DNA of 64,000 nucleotides from an uncultured Candidatus Saccharibacteria bacterium. Its GTDB lineage: Bacteria > Patescibacteriota > Doudnabacteria > UBA920. Numbering within the stretch: the stretch's first letter is position 1; every line of letters begins with the position of its first letter. Both the position numbers and the translations under genes were made by a program. Shown in pieces: positions 883-57,490 of this stretch. The DNA lies in contig CAZLPF010000001.1 in the NCBI GenBank assembly GCA_964561365.1, positions 14,581 through 78,580 on the forward strand, given 5' to 3'. Below the pieces are notes generated by a model that was not told where the DNA came from, ran no database searches, and worked only from the letters and a program-made list of their open reading frames with translations.

Positions 883-1490
883 TCGAATTTCTTTACGAAC
901 TCTTTAATCTTCCACCAGACCTCGGCGCGCGAGCCGAGACCTGAAATGCGCCGGTAGGGGTAGCGCTTCTCGAAGTAGTCCACGACCTGGCTGATGTTCT
1001 TGCGGTAGTACTGAACGCGGTTTTTGAGCGCCGACGCGTTGTCGTCCGCTCGCTTGCTGAACTTGCCGCGGTGATACTCTTTGCGGCCCGTCATGCGCTT
1101 GACCGTTTCCGCCATGGGGATGGACAGGTAGACCATGACCACGCGCTCCCGGCCGGCGGCCTTCATCCACTTGTGCACGAGGCGCGCTTCGCCGATCATT
1201 TTCGGGTTGCCGTCGAACAGGATGCCGAGGTTTCCCGGGGTGCGGGCGATGCGCTCCTGGTGAATGGCGCGGACGAGCTGGGTCGGCGTGAGTTTGCCGG
1301 CGTCGAGCGTCTTGTCGAGCTTGAAGCGCTTCCTGACCGCCGGGCTCTGAATGCTCCGCAGCTCCTTGCCCATGTCGAGGTCGTAGAGCGGCCAGCGCTT
1401 CGTGAGGTGGGCGGCCTGGGTGGCCTTGCCCGCGGCGGGATCGCCGAGGAGGATAACGTTGAGCGGTTGGCGCTTTGCGGCTGGCGACAT
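879..1490 (-). CDS. adenylate kinase-family (NMP kinase) paralog, divergent
   Basis: 203 aa; P-loop GDPAAGKATQA and NMP-kinase core ILFDGNPKMI; clearly related to but distinct from the canonical adk directly upstream. Confidence 0.65.
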   Translation of the reverse strand: MSPAAKRQPLNVILLGDPAAGKATQAAHLTKRWPLYDLDMGKELRSIQSPAVRKRFKLDKTLDAGKLTPTQLVRAIHQERIARTPGNLGILFDGNPKMIGEARLVHKWMKAAGRERVVMVYLSIPMAETVKRMTGRKEYHRGKFSKRADDNASALKNRVQYYRKNISQVVDYFEKRYPYRRISGLGSRAEVWWKIKEFVKKFE

Positions 1491-1501
1491 GGGTCGTGGG
1501 C

Positions 1502-2077
1502 TTAGGCGACGCCGAGGGCGCCGTTGATGCGGGCCGTAACTTCCGGAATGCTGCCGAGGCCCTTGACCGAGACAAAGCTCGTGCAGGTTTTGAGGTAGTC
1601 GAGGACCGGCACCGTGGCTTCCTCGTACTGCTTGAGGCGGAACTCAATTTTCTCCCGCGTGTCGTCGACCCGCCCCTCTTTCGCCGCGCGCTCGGTGAGC
1701 CGCGCGACGGACTCTTCCCGCGGCACGTCGAGGAACAGCGTGGTAAAACTGGCGCGGCCCTGGCCCTTCAGGAACTGCATGAGCCACTCGGCCTGGCCCA
1801 GGCGCCTCGGCACGCCGTCGAAGATGATTCCCTGCTCGGGCCGTATGTCCGCGAGCTTCGTTTCCACCACCTTGAGCAGCACGTCGTCGGGCAGGAGCAC
1901 GCCGTTCTCTATCATGTCCTTCACCTGGCGGCCGAGCGGCGTGCCGAGCGTCGCGGTCTCGCGGCAAATGGCGCCGGTGTCCCAAGAAAAAAAGCCCAAG
2001 CGTGCGGCGAGCAGCTTGCCCTGGGTGCCCTTGCCCGACCCCTGCGGGCCGATAATAAAAATAGTGTTCAGCGACAT
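1502..2077 (-). CDS. adk: adenylate kinase
   Basis: Start at internal ATG (MSLNTIFIIGPQGSGKGTQ) gives 192 aa; P-loop plus DGVPRRLGQAE; the longer ORF-track N-terminus is non-protein-like and was dropped. Confidence 0.85.
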   Translation of the reverse strand: MSLNTIFIIGPQGSGKGTQGKLLAARLGFFSWDTGAICRETATLGTPLGRQVKDMIENGVLLPDDVLLKVVETKLADIRPEQGIIFDGVPRRLGQAEWLMQFLKGQGRASFTTLFLDVPREESVARLTERAAKEGRVDDTREKIEFRLKQYEEATVPVLDYLKTCTSFVSVKGLGSIPEVTARINGALGVA

Positions 2078-2129
2078 TTCTGGGCGTAGTCTAGCCCATA
2101 ATGCCGCTGAACACAAGCGGTTTTCCTCG

Positions 2130-2546
2130 CTATGGTTGCGCCTCGCGTCGTGAAAATTCTGCATCGATGGCGGCGTACAAATCGGCCGCCTTAATCGGTT
2201 TCGGCACGAAGATATCACCGTACCTCTGGCACGGCTGAACCTCGGGGTCTCCGCTGATGCCGACGATAACGATCTCCGGGTGGCGCGCGCGGAGGGCCGC
2301 CGCTATCTCGGCGCCAGCCGCGCAGTCGTGCGCGTTGCCGGAATCTGCCAGGTTGCCGTCGAGCAAGCAAACCGTAATGCCGGCCCGCCCGACATCCCCG
2401 CTTTCGATGAGCCCCAGCGCTTCGTCGCGCCGGGCTGTTTCGAGCGCGACCGTGTGGCCCCGCTTCTCCGCAACCCCGCGTTGGCCCTTCGCCACCACCG
2501 CGTTATCTTCCACCAGAAAGATAACGTACCTACGAACTGCTTCCAT
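2130..2546 (-). CDS. stand-alone response-regulator receiver (REC/CheY-like) domain protein
   Basis: 138 aa; VIFLVEDN acidic pocket; the conserved D and K positions are plausible; no output domain; no histidine kinase in the window. Confidence 0.65.
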   Translation of the reverse strand: MEAVRRYVIFLVEDNAVVAKGQRGVAEKRGHTVALETARRDEALGLIESGDVGRAGITVCLLDGNLADSGNAHDCAAGAEIAAALRARHPEIVIVGISGDPEVQPCQRYGDIFVPKPIKAADLYAAIDAEFSRREAQP

Positions 2547-2661: not shown

Positions 2662-4383
2662 GTGGACCACCTCCTGTTCTATGAAATAACGGCCGTCCTG
2701 CTCCTCGCCGGCTGCATCGGGCTCCTGACCGGCATACTCAAGCAGCCGAGCATTATCGCCTACATCCTGACCGGCCTCATCGTGGGGCCCCTCGGCTACA
2801 TCCACCTCCGCTCGCCCGAAGTTTTGAACGTGCTCGGCGAGATCGGCATCACCCTGCTCCTGTTCATGGTCGGCTTAGAGCTCGACATTAGCCGGGTGAA
2901 GCAGCTCGGCAAAGTCGCTATTGCCACCGGGCTCGGCCAGATTGTTTTTACCACGAGCATCGGCTTCGTGCTCGTGAAGCTCCTCGGCTACAGCCTCGTG
3001 GAGTCGCTGTACGTGGCCGTGGCGCTGACGTTCTCTTCTACCATCATCGTGGTTAAGCTCCTCTCGGAGAAGCGCGAGCTCCAGAGCCTCTACGGGCGCA
3101 TCGTGGTGGGCTTCCTCATTGTCCAAGACTTCGTGGCGCTCGGGCTGCTCGTTCTGCTCGGCGCTACCGGCGGCGCCGAGGTGCCGTGGATGGCTGGCCT
3201 GCCCATATGGCAGGTGGTCGTCGTAACGTTCGCCAAGGTCTTGGCGCTGCTGCTCATACTCGCGTTCGTGAGCCGGCACGTGCTCCCCCGCCTGTTCCGG
3301 CACCTGGCGCGCTCGGATGAGCTGCTCCTGGCCTTTTCCCTCGCCTGGGCCCTGGGCCTCGCGGCGTTCACGAGCCTGCCGGCGGTGGGGCTGTCTCTCG
3401 AGATCGGCGGCTTTCTGGCCGGCCTCGCGCTCGCCAACTCCCCCGTCCACCTGGAAATTGCCGGAAAGGTGCGGAGCATCCGGGACTTTTTCATCATCAT
3501 CTTCTTCATCGTTTTCGGTACGCAGCTCGTGTTCACCGGCATTACCGTGGTGCTCGTGCCGGCCATCATCCTCTCGCTGTTCGTGCTCATCGGCAACCCG
3601 GCCATCGTCCTTACCATCATGGGCTGGCTCGGGTACAAGCCCCGCACGAGCTTTTTCGCTTCGGTGACCGTGGCCCAGGTTTCCGAGTTCAGCTTCATTC
3701 TCATGGCGCTCGGTTTCCGGCTCGGGCACATCGGCGGACAGGCCGTGGCGCTCGTGACGCTCGTGGGGATTGTGACCATTGCCTCGTCTTCATACCTCAT
3801 CCTCTACTCGAAGCGCATTTACCGCGCGCTGCAGGAGCCCCTCAAGGCGTTCGACTTCAAGCGGGGCAGCGCGGAAGCCTCGCTGACCGGCGCGGTTATG
3901 AAGGGCCACGTCATTTTGGTCGGGGCGCACCGGCTCGGCGCCCAGCTCGTCTCGAGCCTCTCGCACCTCGGCCGGCAGCTCGTGCTCGTGGACTTCGATC
4001 CCCAGGTCGTTGACCGCTACGCGGCTTCCGGCGCGACCGTGTTCTGCGGCGACATTGCCGACAGCTACACCCAAGAGCAGCTGAACCTGCGCGAGGCCGA
4101 GCTCGTTATTTCCACCATCCCCGACCTCGAGTCCAACATGGAGCTGCTCGCCGCCATTGAGCGCGAGTGCGCCGGCCGGGCTCACCGGCCGAAGGTCGTG
4201 GTCGCGGCCCAGGACGAGCACGAGTCGCGCCGGCTCTACGAGCGGAAAGTGGACTACGTGCTCTCGCCGCACTTCGTGGGCGGCCAGCACCTCGCGCGCA
4301 TCCTCGAGGGCGCGGCCGGAACCAAAGAGCTCCACCGCTTCCGCGCCGAGCACGAGAAGCGCCTCGCCGAGCTGCTGTCGTAA
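2662..4383 (+). CDS. CPA2 family cation:proton antiporter (KefB-like) with C-terminal RCK/TrkA-N domain
   Basis: 573 aa; GTG start; ~12 TM segments; C-terminal Rossmann segment HVILVGAHRLGAQLVSSLSHLGRQLVLVDFD. Confidence 0.85.
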   Translation: MDHLLFYEITAVLLLAGCIGLLTGILKQPSIIAYILTGLIVGPLGYIHLRSPEVLNVLGEIGITLLLFMVGLELDISRVKQLGKVAIATGLGQIVFTTSIGFVLVKLLGYSLVESLYVAVALTFSSTIIVVKLLSEKRELQSLYGRIVVGFLIVQDFVALGLLVLLGATGGAEVPWMAGLPIWQVVVVTFAKVLALLLILAFVSRHVLPRLFRHLARSDELLLAFSLAWALGLAAFTSLPAVGLSLEIGGFLAGLALANSPVHLEIAGKVRSIRDFFIIIFFIVFGTQLVFTGITVVLVPAIILSLFVLIGNPAIVLTIMGWLGYKPRTSFFASVTVAQVSEFSFILMALGFRLGHIGGQAVALVTLVGIVTIASSSYLILYSKRIYRALQEPLKAFDFKRGSAEASLTGAVMKGHVILVGAHRLGAQLVSSLSHLGRQLVLVDFDPQVVDRYAASGATVFCGDIADSYTQEQLNLREAELVISTIPDLESNMELLAAIERECAGRAHRPKVVVAAQDEHESRRLYERKVDYVLSPHFVGGQHLARILEGAAGTKELHRFRAEHEKRLAELLS

Positions 4384-4392
4384 ACAAAAAAA

Positions 4393-4430
4393 GCAGCGCG
4401 GACCTCAGGGAAGGTCCGCGCGCTGTTTTG
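4393..4430 (+). terminator. rho-independent terminator after the antiporter gene
   Basis: Near-perfect 13-bp GC hairpin gcagcgcggacct/aggtccgcgcgctg followed by TTTTG. Confidence 0.5.
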
Positions 4431-4439
4431 CGGTGGCGT

Positions 4440-5010
4440 GTTCGTTACCGGTTGCCTTGGGTCCAAACGCTGCGTGCACGCAGCTTCCCTTCAGGCTGAA
4501 ACTACCCCAGCGGTTCGGCATGGAACGAGATCTCGATCCTCCTTACCCTTACGGTCCCTTACGATCCAGTGACCGCTCATCCGCCCTTTTTTTGGGCGGA
4601 CTGGTCTGGGTTGCTGGTTCGGTCGTCCGACTCGCACAACCCTCTCGGCAGAGAAAAGTACACCCGCTAAGGTGAGTACGGTCTGTTGTTGCACCGTTTT
4701 TACCTTTTCTGACTTTCACGAACGGTTTACGGGCCCTGTAGCACCCTTGCCGCGCCAATACGAACCATGGCGCTTATCACCTAGAACTAAGTCGCTTTCT
4801 GACCACCGTCATACCTCGTTTCAAAAGGTAACAGGTGGCACCATTCCACCGACGTACGGTTCGGTGAGTGCTTCTCCTCGCGGACTTATCCGTTGCCCTT
4901 CCCTTTGCAGGCGTATCCGACCTTCACCTTGAAGAGTCAGACGGAACAACGACGACTTCGCTCTGAACGGAATTTACACTAGGCTAAAATAAGCGTCAAG
5001 CGCCTTTTCC
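4440..5010. ncRNA. candidate structured non-coding RNA of unknown class (ORF-free, lower-GC intergenic block)
   Basis: ~570 nt with no protein-like ORF in six frames; GC visibly lower (~50-55%) than flanking CDS; several perfect hairpins (gctgcgtgcacgcagc at ~4468-4483; ccgccc-T7-gggcgg at ~4585-4603); CCTTAC triplet repeat at ~4548-4575. Confidence 0.3.
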
Positions 5011-5013
5011 ACT

Positions 5014-5034
5014 TATTTTTGCTACAATTCGGCC
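5014..5034 (+). promoter_or_regulatory. TACAAT -10 box six nt upstream of the cysS ATG (probable leaderless transcript)
   Basis: ttttgcTACAATtcggccATG; no Shine-Dalgarno; the same geometry is seen at rmuC. Confidence 0.35.
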
Positions 5035-6366
5035 ATGCTGAAACTCTACAATTCGCTGTCCAAGCAGCTCGAGGATTTTACCCCCACCTACCCGGACCAC
5101 GTGAACCTCTACAGCTGCGGGCCCACGGTCTACAACTTCGCGCACATTGGCAACCTCCGCAGCTTCGTGGCCGCGGACGTGCTCTACCGCACCCTGAAGC
5201 TCGCCGGCTACAAGCCCGACTGGGTTATGAACATTACGGACGTAGACGACAAGACCATTCGCGGCACGATTGCCGAGTTCGGTCCCAGCGCCGGGGTTGC
5301 GGAGCTGAAACAGCTCACCGAGCGGTACACCAAGTCTTTTAAAGAAGATTTGCGCGAACTCGGCGTGCTTGTGGACGAAATTCGCTTTTTCAACATTACC
5401 GACTACATACAAGAGATTCAGACTTTTGTCCTCGAGCTCATTGAAAAAGGCTTCGCGTACAAGGCTGACGACAGCAGCACCTACTTCAGCATTGAAAAAT
5501 ACCAGGAGCAATTCCACGACTATGGCGCGCTCGTGGGCGAGAAGTTTTTAGAGGGCAAAAAGATAGGCGCCCGGGTCAACGTGGACGAATACGAGAAGGA
5601 CAACCTCTCTGATTTTGCCCTTTGGAAGGCTCACGACGCGCAGGACGGGAACATTTTTTGGGACCATCCCACTTTGGGCAAGGGTCGTCCGGGCTGGCAC
5701 ATAGAGTGTTCGGTCATAAACAAAGTCGCCTTCAAGGGCGAGACTACGGACATACATACCGGGGGCGTTGACCTGAAGTTCCCCCACCATACGAACGAGA
5801 TAGCCCAGAGCCAGCCCGTCTACAAACCGTTCGTAAGCTATTGGGTCCACAGCGAGCACCTTTTGGTGGACGGCAAAAAAATGTCCAAGTCGCTCGGGAA
5901 CTTTCACACGCTCCACGACCTGAAAGAGCGCTACCAGGGTAAGTCTGAAATCGTCGGTCAAATGCTCCGCTACCTGTTCCTGCAGACCCACTACCGCGCG
6001 CAGGCGAACTTTACGCTCGCGTCGCTTGAGTCAACCGGCGCGGCGATTCAGGGGTTACTGCACCGATCAGCATCCGGTAAACCCGAAAGCACCCCTACCG
6101 ACGCGCTCGGGAATGACCTCAATACCGCAGAGGCTCTTTCCGTTGCGGCTGAAAATCCTTCCGATCTCGGGATAGATGTAGAAAAAATTAGAGCCTTCGA
6201 AACGAGCGAGCTGCCGGGCGACGTTCAGGCACTCACCAATGACAGGGCCGCGGCCCGAACGGCTAAAGATTTTTCTAAGTCCGACGAGCTTCGCAAAAAA
6301 ATCGAATCCCTCGGCTACGAGGTGCTCGACACGGGAACCGGCCAGGAAGTACGTCGAAAACTCTAG
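5035..6366 (+). CDS. cysS: cysteinyl-tRNA synthetase
   Basis: 443 aa; class I HIGH (FAHIGN) and KMSKS motifs; Zn-binding Cys/His positions. Confidence 0.9.
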   Translation: MLKLYNSLSKQLEDFTPTYPDHVNLYSCGPTVYNFAHIGNLRSFVAADVLYRTLKLAGYKPDWVMNITDVDDKTIRGTIAEFGPSAGVAELKQLTERYTKSFKEDLRELGVLVDEIRFFNITDYIQEIQTFVLELIEKGFAYKADDSSTYFSIEKYQEQFHDYGALVGEKFLEGKKIGARVNVDEYEKDNLSDFALWKAHDAQDGNIFWDHPTLGKGRPGWHIECSVINKVAFKGETTDIHTGGVDLKFPHHTNEIAQSQPVYKPFVSYWVHSEHLLVDGKKMSKSLGNFHTLHDLKERYQGKSEIVGQMLRYLFLQTHYRAQANFTLASLESTGAAIQGLLHRSASGKPESTPTDALGNDLNTAEALSVAAENPSDLGIDVEKIRAFETSELPGDVQALTNDRAAARTAKDFSKSDELRKKIESLGYEVLDTGTGQEVRRKL

Positions 6367-10462: not shown

Positions 10463-11035
10463 ATGGCCGACGAGTTACGTAAAAACGTTGTGGTCTTTGC
10501 GGGCAGCGAGTGCGCGGGCCCAGGCAAGGAAGGCTACGAGGCCATGGCCTACGAGCTCGGCGGCCTGCTCGGAGCCGCCGGCTGCGCCGTGGTAACCGGC
10601 GCGGGTCCCGGGCTCATGGACGCGTGCTGCCGCGGGGCGCAAAGTACCGGCGGCAAAACCATCGGCATCGGCTTGGACCTCCCCGGCCGCCACCAGTCTC
10701 TGTTCGTTTCCGAGCTCGAGGTTATTTCAAACCTCGGGCCGCGCCAAGAGCACCTCCTCGCCTTGGGCGACGCCTACGTTGCGCTGCCCGGCGGCGTAGG
10801 TACGTTCTACGAGGTGCTGCACGTGCTGGCCTTAAAGCGCGTCGGCGAGCTGCCGGCCGGCAAGCCCCTCGTCTTGATCGGCGAATACTTTAGCCCCCTC
10901 ATAACGCTGCTCGGGCAAAGCATTGCCGAGGGGTTCATGCCCGCGGCTGCAGCCGCGTACTGCCGCGCGGTCGCATCGCCCGCCGAGGCAGCCGGGGCCG
11001 TTGCCGCGGCCTTCGCCGCCAGAGAACATTCATAA
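10463..11035 (+). CDS. LOG family protein (TIGR00730; cytokinin riboside 5'-monophosphate phosphoribohydrolase-like)
   Basis: 190 aa from ATG 10463; GxGxxG-type motif VTGAGPGLMD and PGGVGTFYEV. Confidence 0.7.
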   Translation: MADELRKNVVVFAGSECAGPGKEGYEAMAYELGGLLGAAGCAVVTGAGPGLMDACCRGAQSTGGKTIGIGLDLPGRHQSLFVSELEVISNLGPRQEHLLALGDAYVALPGGVGTFYEVLHVLALKRVGELPAGKPLVLIGEYFSPLITLLGQSIAEGFMPAAAAAYCRAVASPAEAAGAVAAAFAAREHS

Positions 11036-24598: not shown

Positions 24599-26497
24599 CT
24601 ACTCCCCTGCCCCGTAGAGCGGGAAGCGCGCGGTCAGCCTCCTGACCTTTTCGCGCGGGCCGAACACGAGCACGCCGAAGTGCTCGACCTCTGACAGGTC
24701 TTTCTTGCCGGTTTGCTCTACGACTTTTTTATCGCTCGTTGTTTCGATCATCTCGCGGGTGAACTCGGCCACCTCGAGGCCCGCGGCCTTGGCCTCGGCG
24801 GCGAGCTGCTGGATGTCTGCGCTCGAGTCCGCCTGCTTGATCATGATGGCGTGCTGGATGTTCAGCTTGATGCGCTTTTTGTCTTTCGTTTCTATTTCGT
24901 CCTTCATGAGCAGGCGGCGGCCGCTCCGCGCGCCGAAGGCGGCGTTCAGGTGCGCCACCGTGTTCAGCTCCTGCCAGGGCTCGAGCTTTGCGCCGCGGTT
25001 TATGAGCGCTACGGCCTCGCTGCCGCCGGTCTTTTTGCCGTCGCCCGCGCCGCGCATGTGGGGGAAGGTCACGGTTTCGCGGATGGACTTGTTCATGAGG
25101 AAGGCGAAAAACCGTTCTGACATGCCGAAGCCGAAGGCCGGCGGCATGCCGTACTCGAGCGCGGTGACGAAGTCTTCGTCGAGCATCTGGGCCTCGGCGT
25201 CGCCCTGGGCCCTCAGGCGCATCTGCTCTTCAAAGCGGGCGCGCTGGTCGTCGGCATCGTTGAGCTCGGCGAATGCGTTGCAGAGCTCTGACCCCCCGGC
25301 CACGACCTGGAAGCGCAAGACTTTGCGCGGGTTGCCCGGGTCGCGCTTCGAGAGCGGCGAAATATCCACGGGGTGGCCGGTCAGGAAGCACGGCTGCACG
25401 AGCTTGGGCCGTACCGTGCGCTTGTAAATGGCGTCAATGAGCCGGCCGGAGCCCAAAGAACCGGTATCCGGCACGCCGAGGGTGGCAGCTTTCGCGCGGA
25501 GCTCCTGCAGCCCAGCGGTATTGAGGTCAACTCCCGCGTGTTCCCGGAGCAGGTCGAAGTAGTCCAAGCGCGGGAACGGTTTCGACCAGTCTATTTCGCT
25601 GCCTTCGTACTTCGTGACAGCAGCTCCGCAGACCTTGGCGACGATTCCTTTGAAGAGCTCCTCGGTCAGGCGCATGCCGTCCTCGTGGTCGGCGAAGGCC
25701 CAGTAGAACTCCACGTCGTCGTACTCTTGGAGGTGGTCGCGGTCCATGCCCTCGTTGCGGAACAGACGGCCGATCTCGAAGATCTTGTCGTAGCCGGCCA
25801 CGAGCAGGCGCTTTAGGGCCAGCTCGAGGGAAATGCGGAGGTAAAAATCTTCGCCGAGGGCGTTGTAGTGGGTAATGAAGGGCTCGGCGTCGGCGCCCCC
25901 GGGAATGTGCTCGAGCACCGGCGTCTGGACCTCGAGGAAGCCGCGCGAGACGAGGAAGTTCCGCACGGTCTGCCAGAAGACGTTCTTTTTTACGAAGAGG
26001 TCTTTGACGTCGGGGTTCATGAGGATGTCGAGGTAGCGCTGCCGAAGGCGCGTTTCTTCGTCGGCTAAACCGAAGTATTCGGCCGGCAGTGGCCGGAGGG
26101 CTTTGCCGAGCACAATCACGGTCTTGGCTTCGAGCGAGCGCTCCCCCGTTTTCGTCAGCGTGGTTTGGCCGGCGGCTTCCACGAAGTCCCCTGCGTCGAG
26201 CGTCTCGACGAGGAGCTTAAAGGCTTCAGTCCCGACGTTCTCTTCTCGAACGAGCAGCTGCAGTTTGCCGGTACCGTCGTCAATGTGGGCGAAAGCGAGC
26301 TTTCCCATAACCCGGATGCTTCGCACCCGGCCGGCGAGGGTAAGATTTTTGCCCGCGAGCGCATCAAATTTTTCAAGCACCTCGCGAATTTCGTGGTCGC
26401 GGTTCGTGTGCGCCGGGTACAGCGGCACGCCGGCTTCCCCAAGCTTTTTCAGCTTGCCGCGCCGCACGTTCATGATGTCGTCGAGCCGTTCAGACAT
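24599..26497 (-). CDS. lysS: lysyl-tRNA synthetase (class II) with ~130-aa C-terminal extension domain
   Basis: 632 aa; N-terminal OB anticodon-binding fold; class II motifs 1-3; extra C-terminal domain ...LEPWQELNTVAHLNAAFGARSG...FGVLVFGPREKV absent from canonical ~500-aa LysRS. Confidence 0.85.
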   Translation of the reverse strand: MSERLDDIMNVRRGKLKKLGEAGVPLYPAHTNRDHEIREVLEKFDALAGKNLTLAGRVRSIRVMGKLAFAHIDDGTGKLQLLVREENVGTEAFKLLVETLDAGDFVEAAGQTTLTKTGERSLEAKTVIVLGKALRPLPAEYFGLADEETRLRQRYLDILMNPDVKDLFVKKNVFWQTVRNFLVSRGFLEVQTPVLEHIPGGADAEPFITHYNALGEDFYLRISLELALKRLLVAGYDKIFEIGRLFRNEGMDRDHLQEYDDVEFYWAFADHEDGMRLTEELFKGIVAKVCGAAVTKYEGSEIDWSKPFPRLDYFDLLREHAGVDLNTAGLQELRAKAATLGVPDTGSLGSGRLIDAIYKRTVRPKLVQPCFLTGHPVDISPLSKRDPGNPRKVLRFQVVAGGSELCNAFAELNDADDQRARFEEQMRLRAQGDAEAQMLDEDFVTALEYGMPPAFGFGMSERFFAFLMNKSIRETVTFPHMRGAGDGKKTGGSEAVALINRGAKLEPWQELNTVAHLNAAFGARSGRRLLMKDEIETKDKKRIKLNIQHAIMIKQADSSADIQQLAAEAKAAGLEVAEFTREMIETTSDKKVVEQTGKKDLSEVEHFGVLVFGPREKVRRLTARFPLYGAGE

Positions 26498-26663
26498 GGC
26501 CGCATTGTACCAAAAAAATCGGCCTTACCGAAGCCTAATTTTGCACAGGTGACCAATCTATGGTCTGATAAAAACCTGGCACGCGAAAGCCTAAAAAGCT
26601 AGAATGACACGATAGTCCAAAAGGCTATCACCGCAAATTCCAAATTCGCAGGGGGATAGTCTT

Positions 26664-42639: not shown

Positions 42640-43676
42640 GTGCGGTCGGTCAGGAGCGGGTCGGGTTCGGGCTTGGCCTCGACCTGGAGGTTGGCCGCGT
42701 TCTCAATGCTGCCGCGGAGCTTCATGAAATCCGTGCTGACCGTGCCCATCATGTTGCCGGCGTTCTTTATGTGCACCGAGAGCTTGTCTAGGTTGTCGCC
42801 GAACTTGTCGCTCTCTTTCTTCATGCCGGAAATCATGTTCAGGAGCTGGCCGGCGGCTTTGTTCATCTGCTGGCCGCGGAGCGAAATTAAGATGCTCTTG
42901 AGCAGCAGGTGGAGGCTGTTGGGGCCGGCCATGAAGATCTGTTTGCTCCGCGCGTACTCCGAGGCTTCGGACGACTGGGAGATTTCCTGGAACACGCCCT
43001 CGCCGGGGACGAACATGACCGCGTACTCGAGCGTGCCCTCCTGCGGCAGAATGTACTTTTTGTGGATTTCGTCGATGCGCTTCTTCACGTCTTTCAGGAA
43101 GGCTTTGCGCAGGGTGTCCTGGCTGTCGGGGGTGCCGGCTTCCTGGAGCAGCCGGAAGTTCTCGAGCGAGAATTTGCTGTCGACCGAGAGCATGCGCCGC
43201 TCTTCGCCGACCCATACCACGGCGTCTACCACCTCGCCGCTCTTGAAGCGGTACTGGGCCTCGAAGCCGCCCTGCGGCAGCACCTGCTGGAGCAGGTTCT
43301 CGAGCAGCTCTTCGCCGAAGTTGCCGCGCATTTTGCTGTTGGCGAGCGTTTCGGTCAGCCGCTTTATGTCCGGGCCAATGTTCTGCTGGACCTGCGAGAG
43401 TTGGCCGAGCTCGCGCTGCAGCAGCGAAATGACCTTGGCGGCGTTGTCGAGCCGCTCGTTTATGGCTTTGTTCGTTTCGTTCAGGCTCTGCTGGGTGCCC
43501 TCGCGGATGCTGTCCGTGCCCTGCTTTATCTCTTTCATCCACTCCATCATGACCCCGAGGGCCTGGTTGTCCTGGGGTTGGTTGAGCCTAGCTTTCAGCT
43601 GCCAGACCACGTAGAGCAGGACCCCGATTGCAAGTAAAACTATGGCCCCGAGCGCAAATAAAACTTGGGTATTCAT
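42636..43676 (-). CDS. rmuC: DNA recombination protein RmuC
   Basis: 346 aa; N-terminal TM; long coiled coil; RmuC C-terminal domain (YAVMFVPGEGVF...); TACAAT six nt upstream of the ATG (leaderless-type). Confidence 0.8.
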   Translation of the reverse strand: MNTQVLFALGAIVLLAIGVLLYVVWQLKARLNQPQDNQALGVMMEWMKEIKQGTDSIREGTQQSLNETNKAINERLDNAAKVISLLQRELGQLSQVQQNIGPDIKRLTETLANSKMRGNFGEELLENLLQQVLPQGGFEAQYRFKSGEVVDAVVWVGEERRMLSVDSKFSLENFRLLQEAGTPDSQDTLRKAFLKDVKKRIDEIHKKYILPQEGTLEYAVMFVPGEGVFQEISQSSEASEYARSKQIFMAGPNSLHLLLKSILISLRGQQMNKAAGQLLNMISGMKKESDKFGDNLDKLSVHIKNAGNMMGTVSTDFMKLRGSIENAANLQVEAKPEPDPLLTDRT

Positions 43677-43737
43677 GGCTTAATTGTAACATAAACGCCA
43701 CCTTTTTCATTACCCATTTCAGCCCAATCACCCGTGC

Positions 43738-44224: not shown

Positions 44225-44644
44225 ATGGTCAACTTAATCCCCCGCTCCGCATTCGGGCTGTCCCGCTTGCCGAGCATTTGGGACGACGCCGACGACCTCT
44301 GGCCGCTCTCCGGCACCGCCGGTTCTTCCGGCCTTTCGGTCTCGGAAGACGACCGGCACGTCTACGTGGAGGCCCAGGTTCCGGGCGTAGATGCCGACAA
44401 GGTCGACGTGACCTTTGACCAGGGCATGCTCTGGATAAAGGCCGCGCAGGACCGTGAAGAGAAGAACGAACAGCGGAAGTTCTACCGCCGCTCGGCGTCC
44501 AGCTTCTCCTACCGCGTGGCCATTCCCGGAGACGTGGACGAGACGAAAGAACCCGAGGCGACCTGTAAGAACGGCATCATGAAAGTGACGTTCACCAAGC
44601 GCCCCGAGGTCCAGCCAAAAAAGATTTCGGTCCGGAAAGAGTAA
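44225..44644 (+). CDS. Hsp20/alpha-crystallin family small heat-shock protein
   Basis: 139 aa; alpha-crystallin domain (VYVEAQVPGVDADKVDVTFDQGMLWIKA...; C-terminal IMKVTFTK). Confidence 0.85.
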   Translation: MVNLIPRSAFGLSRLPSIWDDADDLWPLSGTAGSSGLSVSEDDRHVYVEAQVPGVDADKVDVTFDQGMLWIKAAQDREEKNEQRKFYRRSASSFSYRVAIPGDVDETKEPEATCKNGIMKVTFTKRPEVQPKKISVRKE

Positions 44645-44650
44645 TATAAA

Positions 44651-44686
44651 AAAACCGGTCAACCTTTTGGCCGGTTTTTTTATTTA
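44651..44686. terminator. bidirectional rho-independent terminator
   Basis: accggtcaa-cctt-ttggccggt (9-bp stem with one G-U pair) followed by T7 on the plus strand and a T-tract on the minus strand; between hsp20 and the AT-rich gene. Confidence 0.6.
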
Positions 44687-45313
44687 TTATTGATAGCTTA
44701 TTATCTCCGAGCTATCATCGAGCTCCTTAAATAACTGAGTTGTCGAATAATTTGTATTATAGGCATCATAATAATTTATTTGGATTTTTAATCCAGGCAA
44801 TCCTGCGGACTTGGCAGCTTTTAAGAATTCCATCAAAACTAATCCTGTAACCGGTTTACCTAAATTATCTAAAACGATTGTACCTGCTTTGTCAGGCACA
44901 ACGACTGTCTTGTTTAAAAAAGTTAATATTTTATTTGAATCTAGTGGGCTTATTATTGGAGCCATTTTAACATTGCGAGCAAGACCATTCCCAACATTTT
45001 TCAAGTAAAAAAACGATTCTTGTTTATCAAAATTTGAAATTATAAAAGGGGCTCGCTGAAAATTGTATTGCTTAATATTTACTTCCTTAAGATCATGCGT
45101 CTCTTTTGTATAAATCAAAACAACAATTCCAGTAAAGGAGATAACGTAAATATTTACTTTATCTTTTAGCTCTTCATTTCCAAGAATTTGCTGAAAAACA
45201 CAAACTAGTAGGATTGAAAGTAAAAAAATTGCCCAGCTGCAAAAATCAAGAGTTGTCTTTCTTTTTAAGAAGGAATTAACTTCCCCTATTTTTTTATCTA
45301 GAAATATAAACAT
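44687..45313 (-). CDS. hypothetical membrane protein encoded by a very AT-rich (foreign-looking) gene
   Basis: ~208 aa from ATG 45313 (ORF-track TTG at 45322); N-terminal TM helices FCSWAIFLLSILLVCVF and VNIYVISFTGIVVLIY plus ~120-aa soluble C-domain with no recognisable motif; GC ~30% by eye vs ~65% in flanks; starts 9 nt after the stop of the Rcl-Nudix gene. Confidence 0.55.
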   Translation of the reverse strand: MFIFLDKKIGEVNSFLKRKTTLDFCSWAIFLLSILLVCVFQQILGNEELKDKVNIYVISFTGIVVLIYTKETHDLKEVNIKQYNFQRAPFIISNFDKQESFFYLKNVGNGLARNVKMAPIISPLDSNKILTFLNKTVVVPDKAGTIVLDNLGKPVTGLVLMEFLKAAKSAGLPGLKIQINYYDAYNTNYSTTQLFKELDDSSEIISYQ

Positions 45314-45322
45314 GTTTAACAA

Positions 45323-46357
45323 TTATTTAAAAAGCAAATTTATTAAGATTTGCTGTTCATCAAAAACAAATTTATTTGCCTTAGCTTTTATTAGTGGAAG
45401 CCAGTAGGCGCGGTCGAGGTCCCATTCGGATCGGCGGATGGGATCTTGTATTACCCCGGTGCGGTAGGTAGCTTTTCGGACGAGGGCGATGATACGGTTG
45501 TTGCCGCCGTTTCGGTTGTAGCTCCAAGTGTAGGTGCCTAAAGTGGCATCGCTCGGCGAAACTTCCACACCTGTTTCTTCCTTTACCCGTTGGGTCAACG
45601 CCTGGTCAGGGTCTACGCCAGTGGCGAGCATTTTGCCGCCGGGGAGCGCGTACTTGCCGCGGACTTTTTTTGAAACGTTCTTTCGGTCCGCGTACTTTAT
45701 GACCAGCATGCCGCGGTCTTTGTCGGTCACCACGACCTTTTGGGCAATGTAGGACCGGCTGTTTGAAGAATTTTGCATCAAATGGCTGTCGAGGTACGGG
45801 TAGCTGGTGCGGTAGTAGCCCACGGCGTCGTCTATGACGCTCAGGCTCTTAAAGATGCTCTCGCTCCCCCACCGCAGCTTCAGGTAGCTGATCAGTTCGT
45901 TAAAGTCGTGCAGGACTACGTCGCACGGGACGCTCACGAACGGGTGTACCCAGTTCCGGTGCGTGGTGCCGTTTAGGGTGAAGCTGTCTTTTACGAATTT
46001 GCTGCCGCGCGCGGCCAAACCTACCAGGGGCTTTCCGTAGTACTTGGCTATGAGCATTTCCTGCGATCCGCCGACGGAAATGTCGTCGCTCAGGTACACG
46101 AGCACCAGGTCGGCTTTGGAAATGAGGAAGCAGTCGCGGCCGAAAATGGCTTTCGGGTCGGTTTCCGGCAGGCTGCGGCCGTCCCGGGTGCGGGCGGGGT
46201 CGAGGTGCGTTACGTTCATGCTGGTAGCTGCTGAAAGGCGGCTGCACAGCTCGTCGCGCCAGCGTTCGGTGCCGAACGAAGAGTTCCCGGAGACTTTTCC
46301 GGCTACGTAGAGCGTCAGGTTTTTGGTGTCTTTCGGCATAGCTTCCGTTGACGGCAT
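45323..46357 (-). CDS. fusion protein: N-terminal nucleoside 2-deoxyribosyltransferase/Rcl(DNPH1)-like domain plus C-terminal Nudix hydrolase domain
   Basis: 344 aa; SD GGGGGTGA upstream of ATG 46357; N-domain LYVAGKVSG...ADLVLVYLSDDISVGGSQEMLIAKYYGKPLVGL (family signature with catalytic Glu); C-domain Nudix box GGKMLATGVDPDQALTQRVKEETGVEV; GC intermediate (~57% by eye); the 3' end runs into the AT-rich tract. Confidence 0.65.
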   Translation of the reverse strand: MPSTEAMPKDTKNLTLYVAGKVSGNSSFGTERWRDELCSRLSAATSMNVTHLDPARTRDGRSLPETDPKAIFGRDCFLISKADLVLVYLSDDISVGGSQEMLIAKYYGKPLVGLAARGSKFVKDSFTLNGTTHRNWVHPFVSVPCDVVLHDFNELISYLKLRWGSESIFKSLSVIDDAVGYYRTSYPYLDSHLMQNSSNSRSYIAQKVVVTDKDRGMLVIKYADRKNVSKKVRGKYALPGGKMLATGVDPDQALTQRVKEETGVEVSPSDATLGTYTWSYNRNGGNNRIIALVRKATYRTGVIQDPIRRSEWDLDRAYWLPLIKAKANKFVFDEQQILINLLFK

Positions 46358-47804: not shown

Positions 47805-47880
47805 CGCGGGATAGAGCAATTGGCAGCTCGCCAGGCTCATAACCTGGAGGTTGGGGGTTCGAGTCCCTCTCCCGCAACCA
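47805..47880 (+). tRNA. initiator tRNA-fMet (anticodon CAT)
   Basis: 76 nt; C1:A72 mismatch; anticodon loop CTCATAA; T-loop GGTTCGAGTCC; encoded 3' CCA; close to E. coli tRNA-fMet. Confidence 0.85.
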
Positions 47881-47941
47881 AGCGAGCGCTCAAATGAATT
47901 GAGCGTTGGCTTGGTTTTAAGGCTCGACCACGATTACGTAT

Positions 47942-48018
47942 GCCGACGTAGCTCAGCTGGTTAGAGCGAGGGACTCATAAGCCCTAGGTCGGAGGTTCAA
48001 GTCCTCCCGTCGGCACCA
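47942..48018 (+). tRNA. tRNA with CAT anticodon (elongator Met or Ile2/lysidine type)
   Basis: 77 nt; GCCGACG acceptor; ACGTAGCTCAG D-arm; loop CTCATAA; encoded CCA. Met vs Ile2 cannot be decided by eye. Confidence 0.8.
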
Positions 48019-48154
48019 CGGGTCATTAAACCTTGCGGGCTCCGCGCGCTGGAATATCCAGCTCGCTGCGCCCTCCAGGTTTGTGCCCCTCCTCCCCAAA
48101 ATCTCCGAACGGAGTTTTTGGGGACCCCAAAGAGCCCAGAGTAGTTTTATGTGT

Positions 48155-48231
48155 GGGGGCGTAGCTCAGTTGGTTAGAGCGTCCGCCTGTCACGCGGAAG
48201 GTCACGGGTTCGAGTCCCGCCGTCCCCGCCA
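48155..48231 (+). tRNA. tRNA-Asp (anticodon GTC)
   Basis: 77 nt; GGGGGCG/CGTCCCC acceptor; loop CTGTCAC; encoded CCA. Confidence 0.85.
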
Positions 48232-57414: not shown

Positions 57415-57490
57415 TGGAGCCAGCTGTGGGAGTCGAACCCACGACCTACGCGTTACGAGTGCGTCGCTCTACCAACTGAGCTAAGCTGGC
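57415..57490 (-). tRNA. tRNA-Thr (anticodon CGT)
   Basis: 76 nt on the minus strand: GCCAGCTTAGCTCAGTTGGTAGAGCGACGCACTCGTAACGCGTAGGTCGTGGGTTCGACTCCCACAGCTGGCTCCA; encoded CCA. Confidence 0.85.

Follow-up and report, generated by a model that had tools for sequence, protein, structure and literature searches.

A 651-nt gene-free gap ahead of cysS in a patescibacterial genome: ordinary signals at both ends of a probable lineage-specific core

The gene-free gap between a Na+/H+ antiporter gene and cysS in the 64-kb stretch of DNA analysed here (hereafter the window) is most likely a composite, in which ordinary signals at both ends enclose a lineage-specific core of ~540 nt. For the core itself, the reading that we favour, with a probability of about 0.5, is that of DNA specific to this lineage, inserted or left over at a junction prone to indels and possibly transcribed on the minus strand. 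Under this reading, the left end of the gap would be the intrinsic terminator of the antiporter gene (4396–4421), the right end would be the promoter of a leaderless cysS mRNA (an extended −10 element at 5020–5028), and the core would have been inserted, or would be the remnant of a lost lineage-specific gene, at a position where relatives repeatedly gain or lose unrelated small genes. Minus-strand transcription would start near 4964 at a sigma-70-like promoter and end near 4387 at the T7 side of the hairpin shared with the antiporter gene, giving a transcript of ~578 nt. We found no evidence for a conserved RNA function of the core, which may well lack a function altogether.

Limits, composition and relatives of the gap

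The antiporter stop codon ends at 4383 and the cysS start codon lies at 5035, leaving a gene-free gap of 651 nt (4384–5034). It is flanked on the left by the exchanger gene with its Na_H_Exchanger and TrkA_N domains (2662–4383, plus strand) and on the right by cysS (5035–6366, plus strand). A first-pass annotation of this DNA had reported an ORF-free block at 4440–5034; the gap holds, and its left limit has to be moved to 4384, as a start at 4440 omits the terminator hairpin. The drop in GC content that had been described was also found, with 0.54 in the gap (locally 0.50–0.59) against 0.62–0.69 in the flanking genes, a value intermediate between coding DNA (~0.63–0.67) and short promoter-bearing intergenic regions (0.35–0.45). 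In a sliding best-frame scan of the window, positions 4336–5085 formed the longest otherwise unexplained run without native coding signal, the only comparable long runs being a low-GC foreign gene at 44.5–45.5 kb and a tRNA cluster at 47.6–48.4 kb.

The sequence elements pointed out in the first-pass annotation could be located. They comprise a perfect 16-nt palindrome, GCTGCGTGCACGCAGC, at 4469–4484, which occurs once in the window; a CCTTAC triplet repeat on the plus strand at 4541–4562, reported by TRF with a period of 10 and 2.2 copies; the hairpin ccgccc-T7-gggcgg, which the perfect-hairpin scan extended to TCCGCCC-T7-GGGCGGA at 4580–4600; and a tag-like reading frame closing in NNDDFALNGIYTRLK and a stop codon. 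The hairpin at 4580–4600 is no terminator, because its T-run sits in the loop. Read on the minus strand, the CCTTAC repeat becomes three GTAAGG units (z 5.3) that terminate in AAGGAGG. The orphan core spans 4430–4965 (~540 nt, described here on the minus strand) and has no ORF signal, repeats or homologue. Its minus strand is 56% purine and is enriched in AAGG (13 occurrences against 5.0 expected, z 3.6) and in AAGGG (7 against 1.4, z 5.0).

The window belongs to a patescibacterial (CPR) genome near the Doudnabacteria. As comparison set for the gap, we used 164 loci that surround CysS relatives in GTDB genomes, JGI metagenomes and Logan/ENA contigs. The CysS protein of the window was a singleton among 5.8 billion proteins, its next relative being 66% identical; the best matches in GTDB genomes were 53–60% identical and came from Patescibacteria or Doudnabacteria MAGs, and the best match in JGI metagenomes reached 46%. 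The antiporter-cysS synteny is kept in five of the loci (L161, L002, L003, L012 and L024) and is partly visible in three others (L001, L162 and L164). In three of these relatives, just 104–174 nt separate the antiporter terminator from the cysS ATG: 104 nt in L161, the closest syntenic relative (66% identity for CysS and 67% for the antiporter), 117 nt in L003 and 174 nt in L002. The junctions of the other loci are occupied differently, with about 210 nt and a 30-aa ORF in L164, 485 nt and a 76-aa ORF in L001, a 206-aa orphan gene on the minus strand in L162 and L163, and one additional plus-strand gene in L024. The junction appears to be a recurrent landing site for lineage-specific genes.

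The ~540-nt core was absent from all syntenic relatives examined. Searches by blastn, nhmmer and tblastx against the 164 loci returned no relative of the core, the junction material of the relatives being dissimilar to it, and none was found among INPHARED phages and PLSDB plasmids. Since the collections searched hold no homologue and the closest CysS is only 66% identical, covariation is not computable, and with the core carried by one genome only, selection or its absence is not measurable.

These comparisons are consistent with inserted or leftover DNA, against which two general considerations can be raised. Streamlined CPR genomes are expected to purge useless DNA, which makes a neutral stretch of 540 nt somewhat surprising, and a clean bracket of promoter and terminator without an ORF is what classically marks an sRNA or ncRNA gene. 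For an origin of the core by gene decay in particular, codon periodicity or database homology should persist, whereas just a marginal periodicity in GC was seen.

A candidate minus-strand unit and its terminator

At the left end of the gap, a hairpin of 10–11 bp with 8 G-C pairs lies at 4396–4421, 13 nt 3' of the antiporter stop, and forms a two-sided intrinsic terminator. Among the terminator-like sites of the first 20 kb it ranked first, and it has the make-up of a Rho-independent terminator, a G+C-rich hairpin followed by a T-run just 3' of the antiporter gene. The plus-strand tail reads GCTGTTTTGC (T4). On the minus side, the tail is TGCTTTTTTT (4386–4395, with T7 from 4392 to 4386), the predicted 3' end of a minus-strand transcript. 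Matching hairpins in the relatives are also placed 13 nt past the antiporter stop, their plus-strand tail being T6. The other strong terminators in the window all lie 2–40 nt past the end of a gene, on the strand that bears the T-tail, and the sole other two-sided terminator (44646–44683) lies between convergent genes. With its G+C-rich stem of 10–11 bp and its flanking A-tract and T-tract, the hairpin resembles the bidirectional intrinsic terminators found between convergent units; unlike in those cases, the antiporter gene is the only visible gene of the two converging units here.

On the minus strand, a sigma-70-like promoter match, TTGACG-17-TAAATT (9 of 12 positions), was found at 4971–4999, back-to-back with the cysS promoter and with a predicted start near 4964. 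A stretch of 20 kb held eight such matches where 2.4 were expected, and apart from this one, most were correctly placed upstream of genes. The promoter match and the orientation rule of the window's terminators together suggest minus-strand transcription, and a possible unit of ~578 nt would run from ~4964 at the promoter match to ~4387 at the T7 side of the hairpin. This possible unit is the only positive clue that the gap offers, on a strand that did not enter the reasoning of the first-pass annotation. An AT-rich inverted repeat, GCTAAAATAAG-N18-CTTATTTTTGC (4983–5022, 11-nt arms, 91% complementary), covers the interval separating the two divergent promoter elements.

Such a unit could be a functional lineage-restricted ncRNA of ~578 nt, read on the minus strand from ~4964 to 4387 under its own promoter and perhaps acting in trans via AAGG/AAGGAGG-like motifs. 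We regard this as possible but unlikely. It would account for the promoter match, for the T7 on the minus side of the strongest terminator of the first 20 kb together with the orientation rule, for the missing coding signal in every frame and for the enrichment of AAGG and AAGGG, and folding is slightly better for the minus strand than for the plus. On the other hand, the promoter has no TGnTAnAAT signature of the kind typical of this genome, the closest syntenic relative has no such sequence, no Rfam family was matched even at E ≤ 10, and the collections searched provide no homologue from which conservation or covariation could be cited. The ORF-free spacer, with a sigma-70-like promoter and a strong Rho-independent terminator both on the minus strand, resembles the orphan intergenic sRNA and ncRNA units sought by the logic of sRNAPredict and SIPHT, as does the divergence of its promoter from that of the neighbour and its convergence on the terminator of the upstream gene. 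It differs from typical sRNAs (50–300 nt) in its length of ~578 nt, and this predicted unit has neither conservation nor above-background structure. Rather doubtful, and a little more so, is the specific proposal of an unseen ncRNA of ~578 nt in a single deep-branching Doudnabacteria-like CPR lineage, which would diverge from the leaderless cysS promoter, end at the shared two-sided terminator and use its purine-rich AAGG/AAGGAGG-like motifs as possible interaction sites.

Folding likewise bears on this proposal. The full 651 nt gave folding z-scores of −4.6 on the minus strand and −2.4 on the plus strand, values that come from 20 shuffles only and include the 10–11-bp terminator hairpin. When this hairpin was left out (4430–4964), the plus strand gave z = −1.84 and the minus strand z = −2.26, and both values are within the background of 30 same-sized windows across the 64 kb (−1.12 ± 1.95); the tRNA cluster reaches −6. 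Among 150-nt windows in the spacer, z ranged from +0.3 to −3.2, and the two best (−3.2 and −2.5) were on the minus strand at 4501–4725, where four adjacent hairpins form a cluster that would suit a functional ncRNA. Local values of about −3 were also seen inside cysS, and thus in coding DNA, and at other gene ends. The spacer body holds three perfect hairpins with a stem of at least 6, for which the shuffle mean is 1.1 (P = 0.11), and 46% of equal-sized windows in this genome hold at least three. The structure of the spacer is not above genome background, and the 'hairpin-rich' character that had been ascribed to the block was not borne out as more than chance. Elsewhere in the window, a region with z = −6 at 44.0–44.5 kb turned out to be a strong two-sided terminator of the ordinary kind, between an Hsp20 gene and a low-GC foreign gene.

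Coding signal, cysS promoter and known RNA families

The gap has no protein-like ORF, as had been stated from inspection of the sequence, and both codon-phase GC and a six-frame codon model were negative. The codon-phase GC spread was 0.42–0.55 in both flanking genes against 0.02–0.23 over 4411–4950, and the codon model, trained on 19 confident genes from the window, gave each of the six spacer frames −0.45 to −0.60 per codon, where real genes reach +0.30. Each of the six frames contains 3–12 stops, and open stretches reach at most 74 codons on the minus strand and 119 on the plus strand, about what is expected for random sequence of the same composition, as estimated from base frequencies. 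A weak GC excess was found at coordinates congruent to 2 (mod 3) in all sub-segments (p 0.02–0.05 for GC alone and 0.15–0.2 for all four bases), and it matches no open frame.

Six-frame stop-masked translations yielded no match in Pfam, NCBIfam or PHROGs at E ≤ 10. Concatenated six-frame translations had no match among 5.8 billion proteins at E ≤ 1, not even a self-match, so the source record also has no gene call here. The most protein-like open stretch, one of 73 aa on the minus strand (4494–4712), was chosen for a HMMER search against 1.84 billion representatives and gave a single match, P0121, with an E-value of 1.9e-4. This protein was rejected as a spurious ORF that covers 90-nt tandem repeats of a satellite-like contig with 45% GC, the same ~45 query residues fitting each of three repeats with 28–34 bits apiece. 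Searches of the longest open stretches against IMG/VR gave nothing genuine; the one candidate (L166) was discarded as it was seeded by an 8-mer only, within an out-of-frame stretch of 34 codons.

SD-like motifs of any kind precede 5 of the 37 genes in the window, and the genome is essentially SD-less. SD-based calling of small ORFs is therefore uninformative, and for the same reason the AAGGAGG at the end of the GTAAGG repeat is not an obvious ribosome-binding site. A search of the spacer for leaderless small ORFs found none, cysS itself being the sole fit to the pattern.

One or more protein-coding genes, whether heavily decayed, of foreign orphan origin or hidden as small-protein genes in the spacer, are an improbable explanation given these results. 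The same junction does hold lineage-specific orphan genes in relatives, including the 206-aa minus-strand gene of L162, low-GC foreign genes do occur in this genome, and the promoter and terminator signals on the minus strand as well as the marginal GC excess in one phase would be in keeping with a gene; in an SD-less genome, a missing ribosome-binding site is no argument against small ORFs. All six frames are nevertheless equally poor in the codon model and interrupted by stops, the protein collections are empty, the P0121 and IMG/VR matches are spurious, no leaderless small ORF is present and the spacer is unlike the L162 gene. The suggestion in the first-pass annotation that the block might be a decayed gene thus gained no positive evidence from the six-frame searches, the codon model or the rejected P0121.

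At the right end of the gap, an extended −10 element, TGCTACAAT, lies on the plus strand at 5020–5028 and ends 6 nt before the cysS ATG at 5035. The window holds 9 copies of the pattern TGnTAnAAT, where 1.0 would be expected, and the pattern also lies 6 nt ahead of the ATG at the genes starting at 26497 and 43676, both on the minus strand. Upstream of cysS, the layout of −10 element, 6 nt and ATG is shared by L001, L161, L162, L012, L021 and others. From this spacing of 6 nt and its conservation in relatives, cysS appears to be expressed from a leaderless mRNA with its predicted start at the ATG. This arrangement is like the leaderless promoters of Actinobacteria, Deinococcus and archaea, in which an extended −10 element lies directly ahead of the start codon; the likeness accounts for just the last ~40 nt of the gap, and only these ~40 nt belong to cysS. 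The first-pass annotation had offered, as an alternative, a long leaderless-promoter or UTR region of cysS, of which the promoter is supported by the conserved extended −10 element and the long UTR is contradicted by the 6 nt to the ATG.

A leaderless cysS mRNA would remove the T-box, riboswitch and UTR readings, and a long cysS 5' leader, acting as a T-box, a riboswitch or a Cys-codon leader-peptide attenuator, is very improbable and largely refuted. Firmicutes are known to control cysS by T-boxes, and three consecutive Cys codons do occur on the cysS strand at 4684–4692, where an 86-aa ORF starts with MSTVCCC (estimated chance about 0.03). However, TGCTACAAT is kept at 6 nt from the ATG in relatives with gaps of just 100–170 nt, no T-box or cis-regulatory Rfam family matched at E ≤ 10, and no plus-strand attenuator terminator was present within 4700–5034. 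Leader-peptide attenuation through MSTVCCC was ruled out by the leaderless cysS together with the missing plus-strand attenuator.

Since the size of the block had suggested RNase P RNA, tmRNA or another large structured RNA, known families were searched in two ways. At the gathering score, cmscan of the whole window against Rfam 15 returned four tRNAs only, and ARAGORN likewise found 4 tRNAs and no tmRNA. For 4350–5100, cmscan against all 4227 Rfam families at E ≤ 10 on both strands gave zero matches, 6S, OLE, raiA, HEARO, GOLLD and ROOL included, where a control region under the same setting gave 20 chance-level matches. The bacterial (type A and B) and archaeal RNase P RNA models had no match at either threshold, and the tmRNA idea was negative with both ARAGORN and Rfam. 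A large structured RNA is left unsupported by the empty Rfam and ARAGORN results, the folding within background and the absence of the core from syntenic relatives; two of the three outcomes named in the first-pass annotation as speaking against it, an empty Rfam search and no homologue to carry covariation, were obtained.

TIGR arrays are often found in CPR bacteria (Faure et al. 2025, PMC12045711). They consist of two alternating 8–12-nt repeats with ~9-nt spacers, or of regular stem-loops with box C/D, in units of ~36 nt repeated 5–15 times, and adjoin a Nop-domain Tas gene (PMC12045711). The spacer shares with them the CPR host, a non-coding block closed by a Rho-independent terminator and several palindromes, but it has no alternating 8–12-nt repeats, no periodicity of ~36 nt and no adjoining Nop-domain Tas gene. 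TRF found nothing in the spacer but a 10-nt micro-repeat of 2.2 copies, its autocorrelation had no peak at 18–40 nt, no 8-mer family was in register, and its best self-alignment scores were under the shuffle mean. The neighbouring genes encode a Peptidase_M24 protein, a Response_reg protein, the Na_H_Exchanger/TrkA_N antiporter, CysS and Dus, and five further neighbouring ORFs (two upstream and three small ones downstream) had no Pfam match; no Nop domain was found among them. Terminal inverted repeats are likewise missing from the spacer, and the window holds no further copy of it. A TIGR array, a CRISPR-like array and a MITE were ruled out by the missing periodicity, repeat family, terminal inverted repeats and second copy, and a replication origin or terminus by the absence of DnaA boxes and of a GC-skew switch at the spacer.

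The known large RNA families with models are effectively refuted, and a highly diverged member of one (RNase P RNA, tmRNA, 6S, OLE, ROOL, GOLLD, HEARO, raiA or a TIGR array), for which only the size of about 600 nt and the absence of ORFs speak, is hardly credible given the empty Rfam and ARAGORN searches, the lack of array periodicity or a repeat family and the absence of Nop/Tas, IscB, TnpB and reverse-transcriptase genes among the neighbours. The spacer shares its size class and lack of ORFs with OLE, ROOL, GOLLD, raiA, HEARO, RNase P RNA and tmRNA, and differs from them in having no covariance-model match, no conserved motifs, no conservation in relatives and no above-background folding. 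Artefacts such as misassembly take up the remainder of the probability.

Significance for the lineage

As it stands, the spacer is a single-genome orphan with ordinary end signals and matters little. If the minus-strand transcript were real and functional, it would be among the very few large ncRNAs known from the otherwise tightly packed genomes of CPR/Patescibacteria; even then, without any relative, it would open no general question. As a by-product of this analysis, TGnTAnAAT promoters in this lineage appear to drive cysS and other genes as leaderless mRNAs that lack Shine-Dalgarno motifs, and this mode of expression, together with the hot-spot junction between the antiporter gene and cysS, tells more about the lineage than the spacer itself.

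Variable junction upstream of cysS

In the loci of relatives compared with the window (L161, L002, L003, L164, L001, L162/L163 and L024), the junction between the antiporter gene and cysS was as short as 104 nt and as long as several hundred nt. Its contents were lineage-specific and mutually unrelated, and included a 30-aa ORF, a 76-aa ORF, an orphan gene of 206 aa on the minus strand and an additional gene on the plus strand. Comparison of these sequences marks this junction as a hot spot for indels. The lone HMMER match to the 73-aa minus-strand open stretch of the spacer, P0121 (E = 1.9e-4), was a 183-aa ‘protein’ encoded on L165, the ENA contig NODE_24766 (3096 nt, 45% GC), which is composed of 90-nt and 222-nt tandem repeats. 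P0121 was rejected as a spurious ORF over the 90-nt repeats and its E value was a false positive caused by repeat summation, a caution for similar searches.

In the spacer, an AT-rich inverted repeat, GCTAAAATAAG-N18-CTTATTTTTGC (4983-5022), bridges the interval from the extended -10 element of cysS to the -35-like hexamer (TTGACG) of the predicted divergent minus-strand promoter. No counterpart of this putative operator, which could be bound by a dimeric regulator, was seen in L161.

Regions of atypical composition and tRNA genes

A low-GC island (GC 0.35) was found at 44551-45480. Its 211-aa ORF (44687-45322, minus strand) is probably foreign given its GC3 of 0.26, compared with 0.7-0.9 in native genes. 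This ORF and an Hsp20-like gene (44225-44644) are convergent and separated by a very strong two-sided terminator (44646-44683), which accounts for the fold-energy z-score of -6 against shuffles in this region. Two further ORFs in the crude gene map, 904-1647 (minus strand) and 10510-10893 (plus strand), had a GC3 of ~0.47-0.48, well under that of native genes, which could reflect either a foreign origin or frames that were called in error; the former had no Pfam match and is overlapped by another ORF (1614-2153, plus strand). Three tRNA genes, two for tRNA-Met (CAT) and one for tRNA-Asp (GTC), were clustered inside 430 nt (47805-48231), and a tRNA-Thr (CGT) gene was located outside this cluster (57415-57490, minus strand).

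Leaderless promoters and translation initiation

Among the 37 confident gene starts in the window, a Shine-Dalgarno-like motif, even a weak one, was found within 20 nt upstream in only five, and CC preceded many start codons. Judging from these start regions, translation initiation in this genome appears essentially independent of Shine-Dalgarno motifs. The extended -10 motif TGnTAnAAT occurred nine times in the window against 1.0 expected (~9-fold enrichment), and exactly 6 nt separated its end from the ATG of cysS (5020-5035, plus strand, from motif to start codon). The spacing was identical at a minimum of two further genes (26497-26512 and 43676-43691, both minus strand). The same arrangement was conserved upstream of cysS in the relatives' loci L001, L161, L162, L012 and L021. 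Because of this enrichment, spacing and conservation, leaderless mRNAs seem to be common in the lineage.
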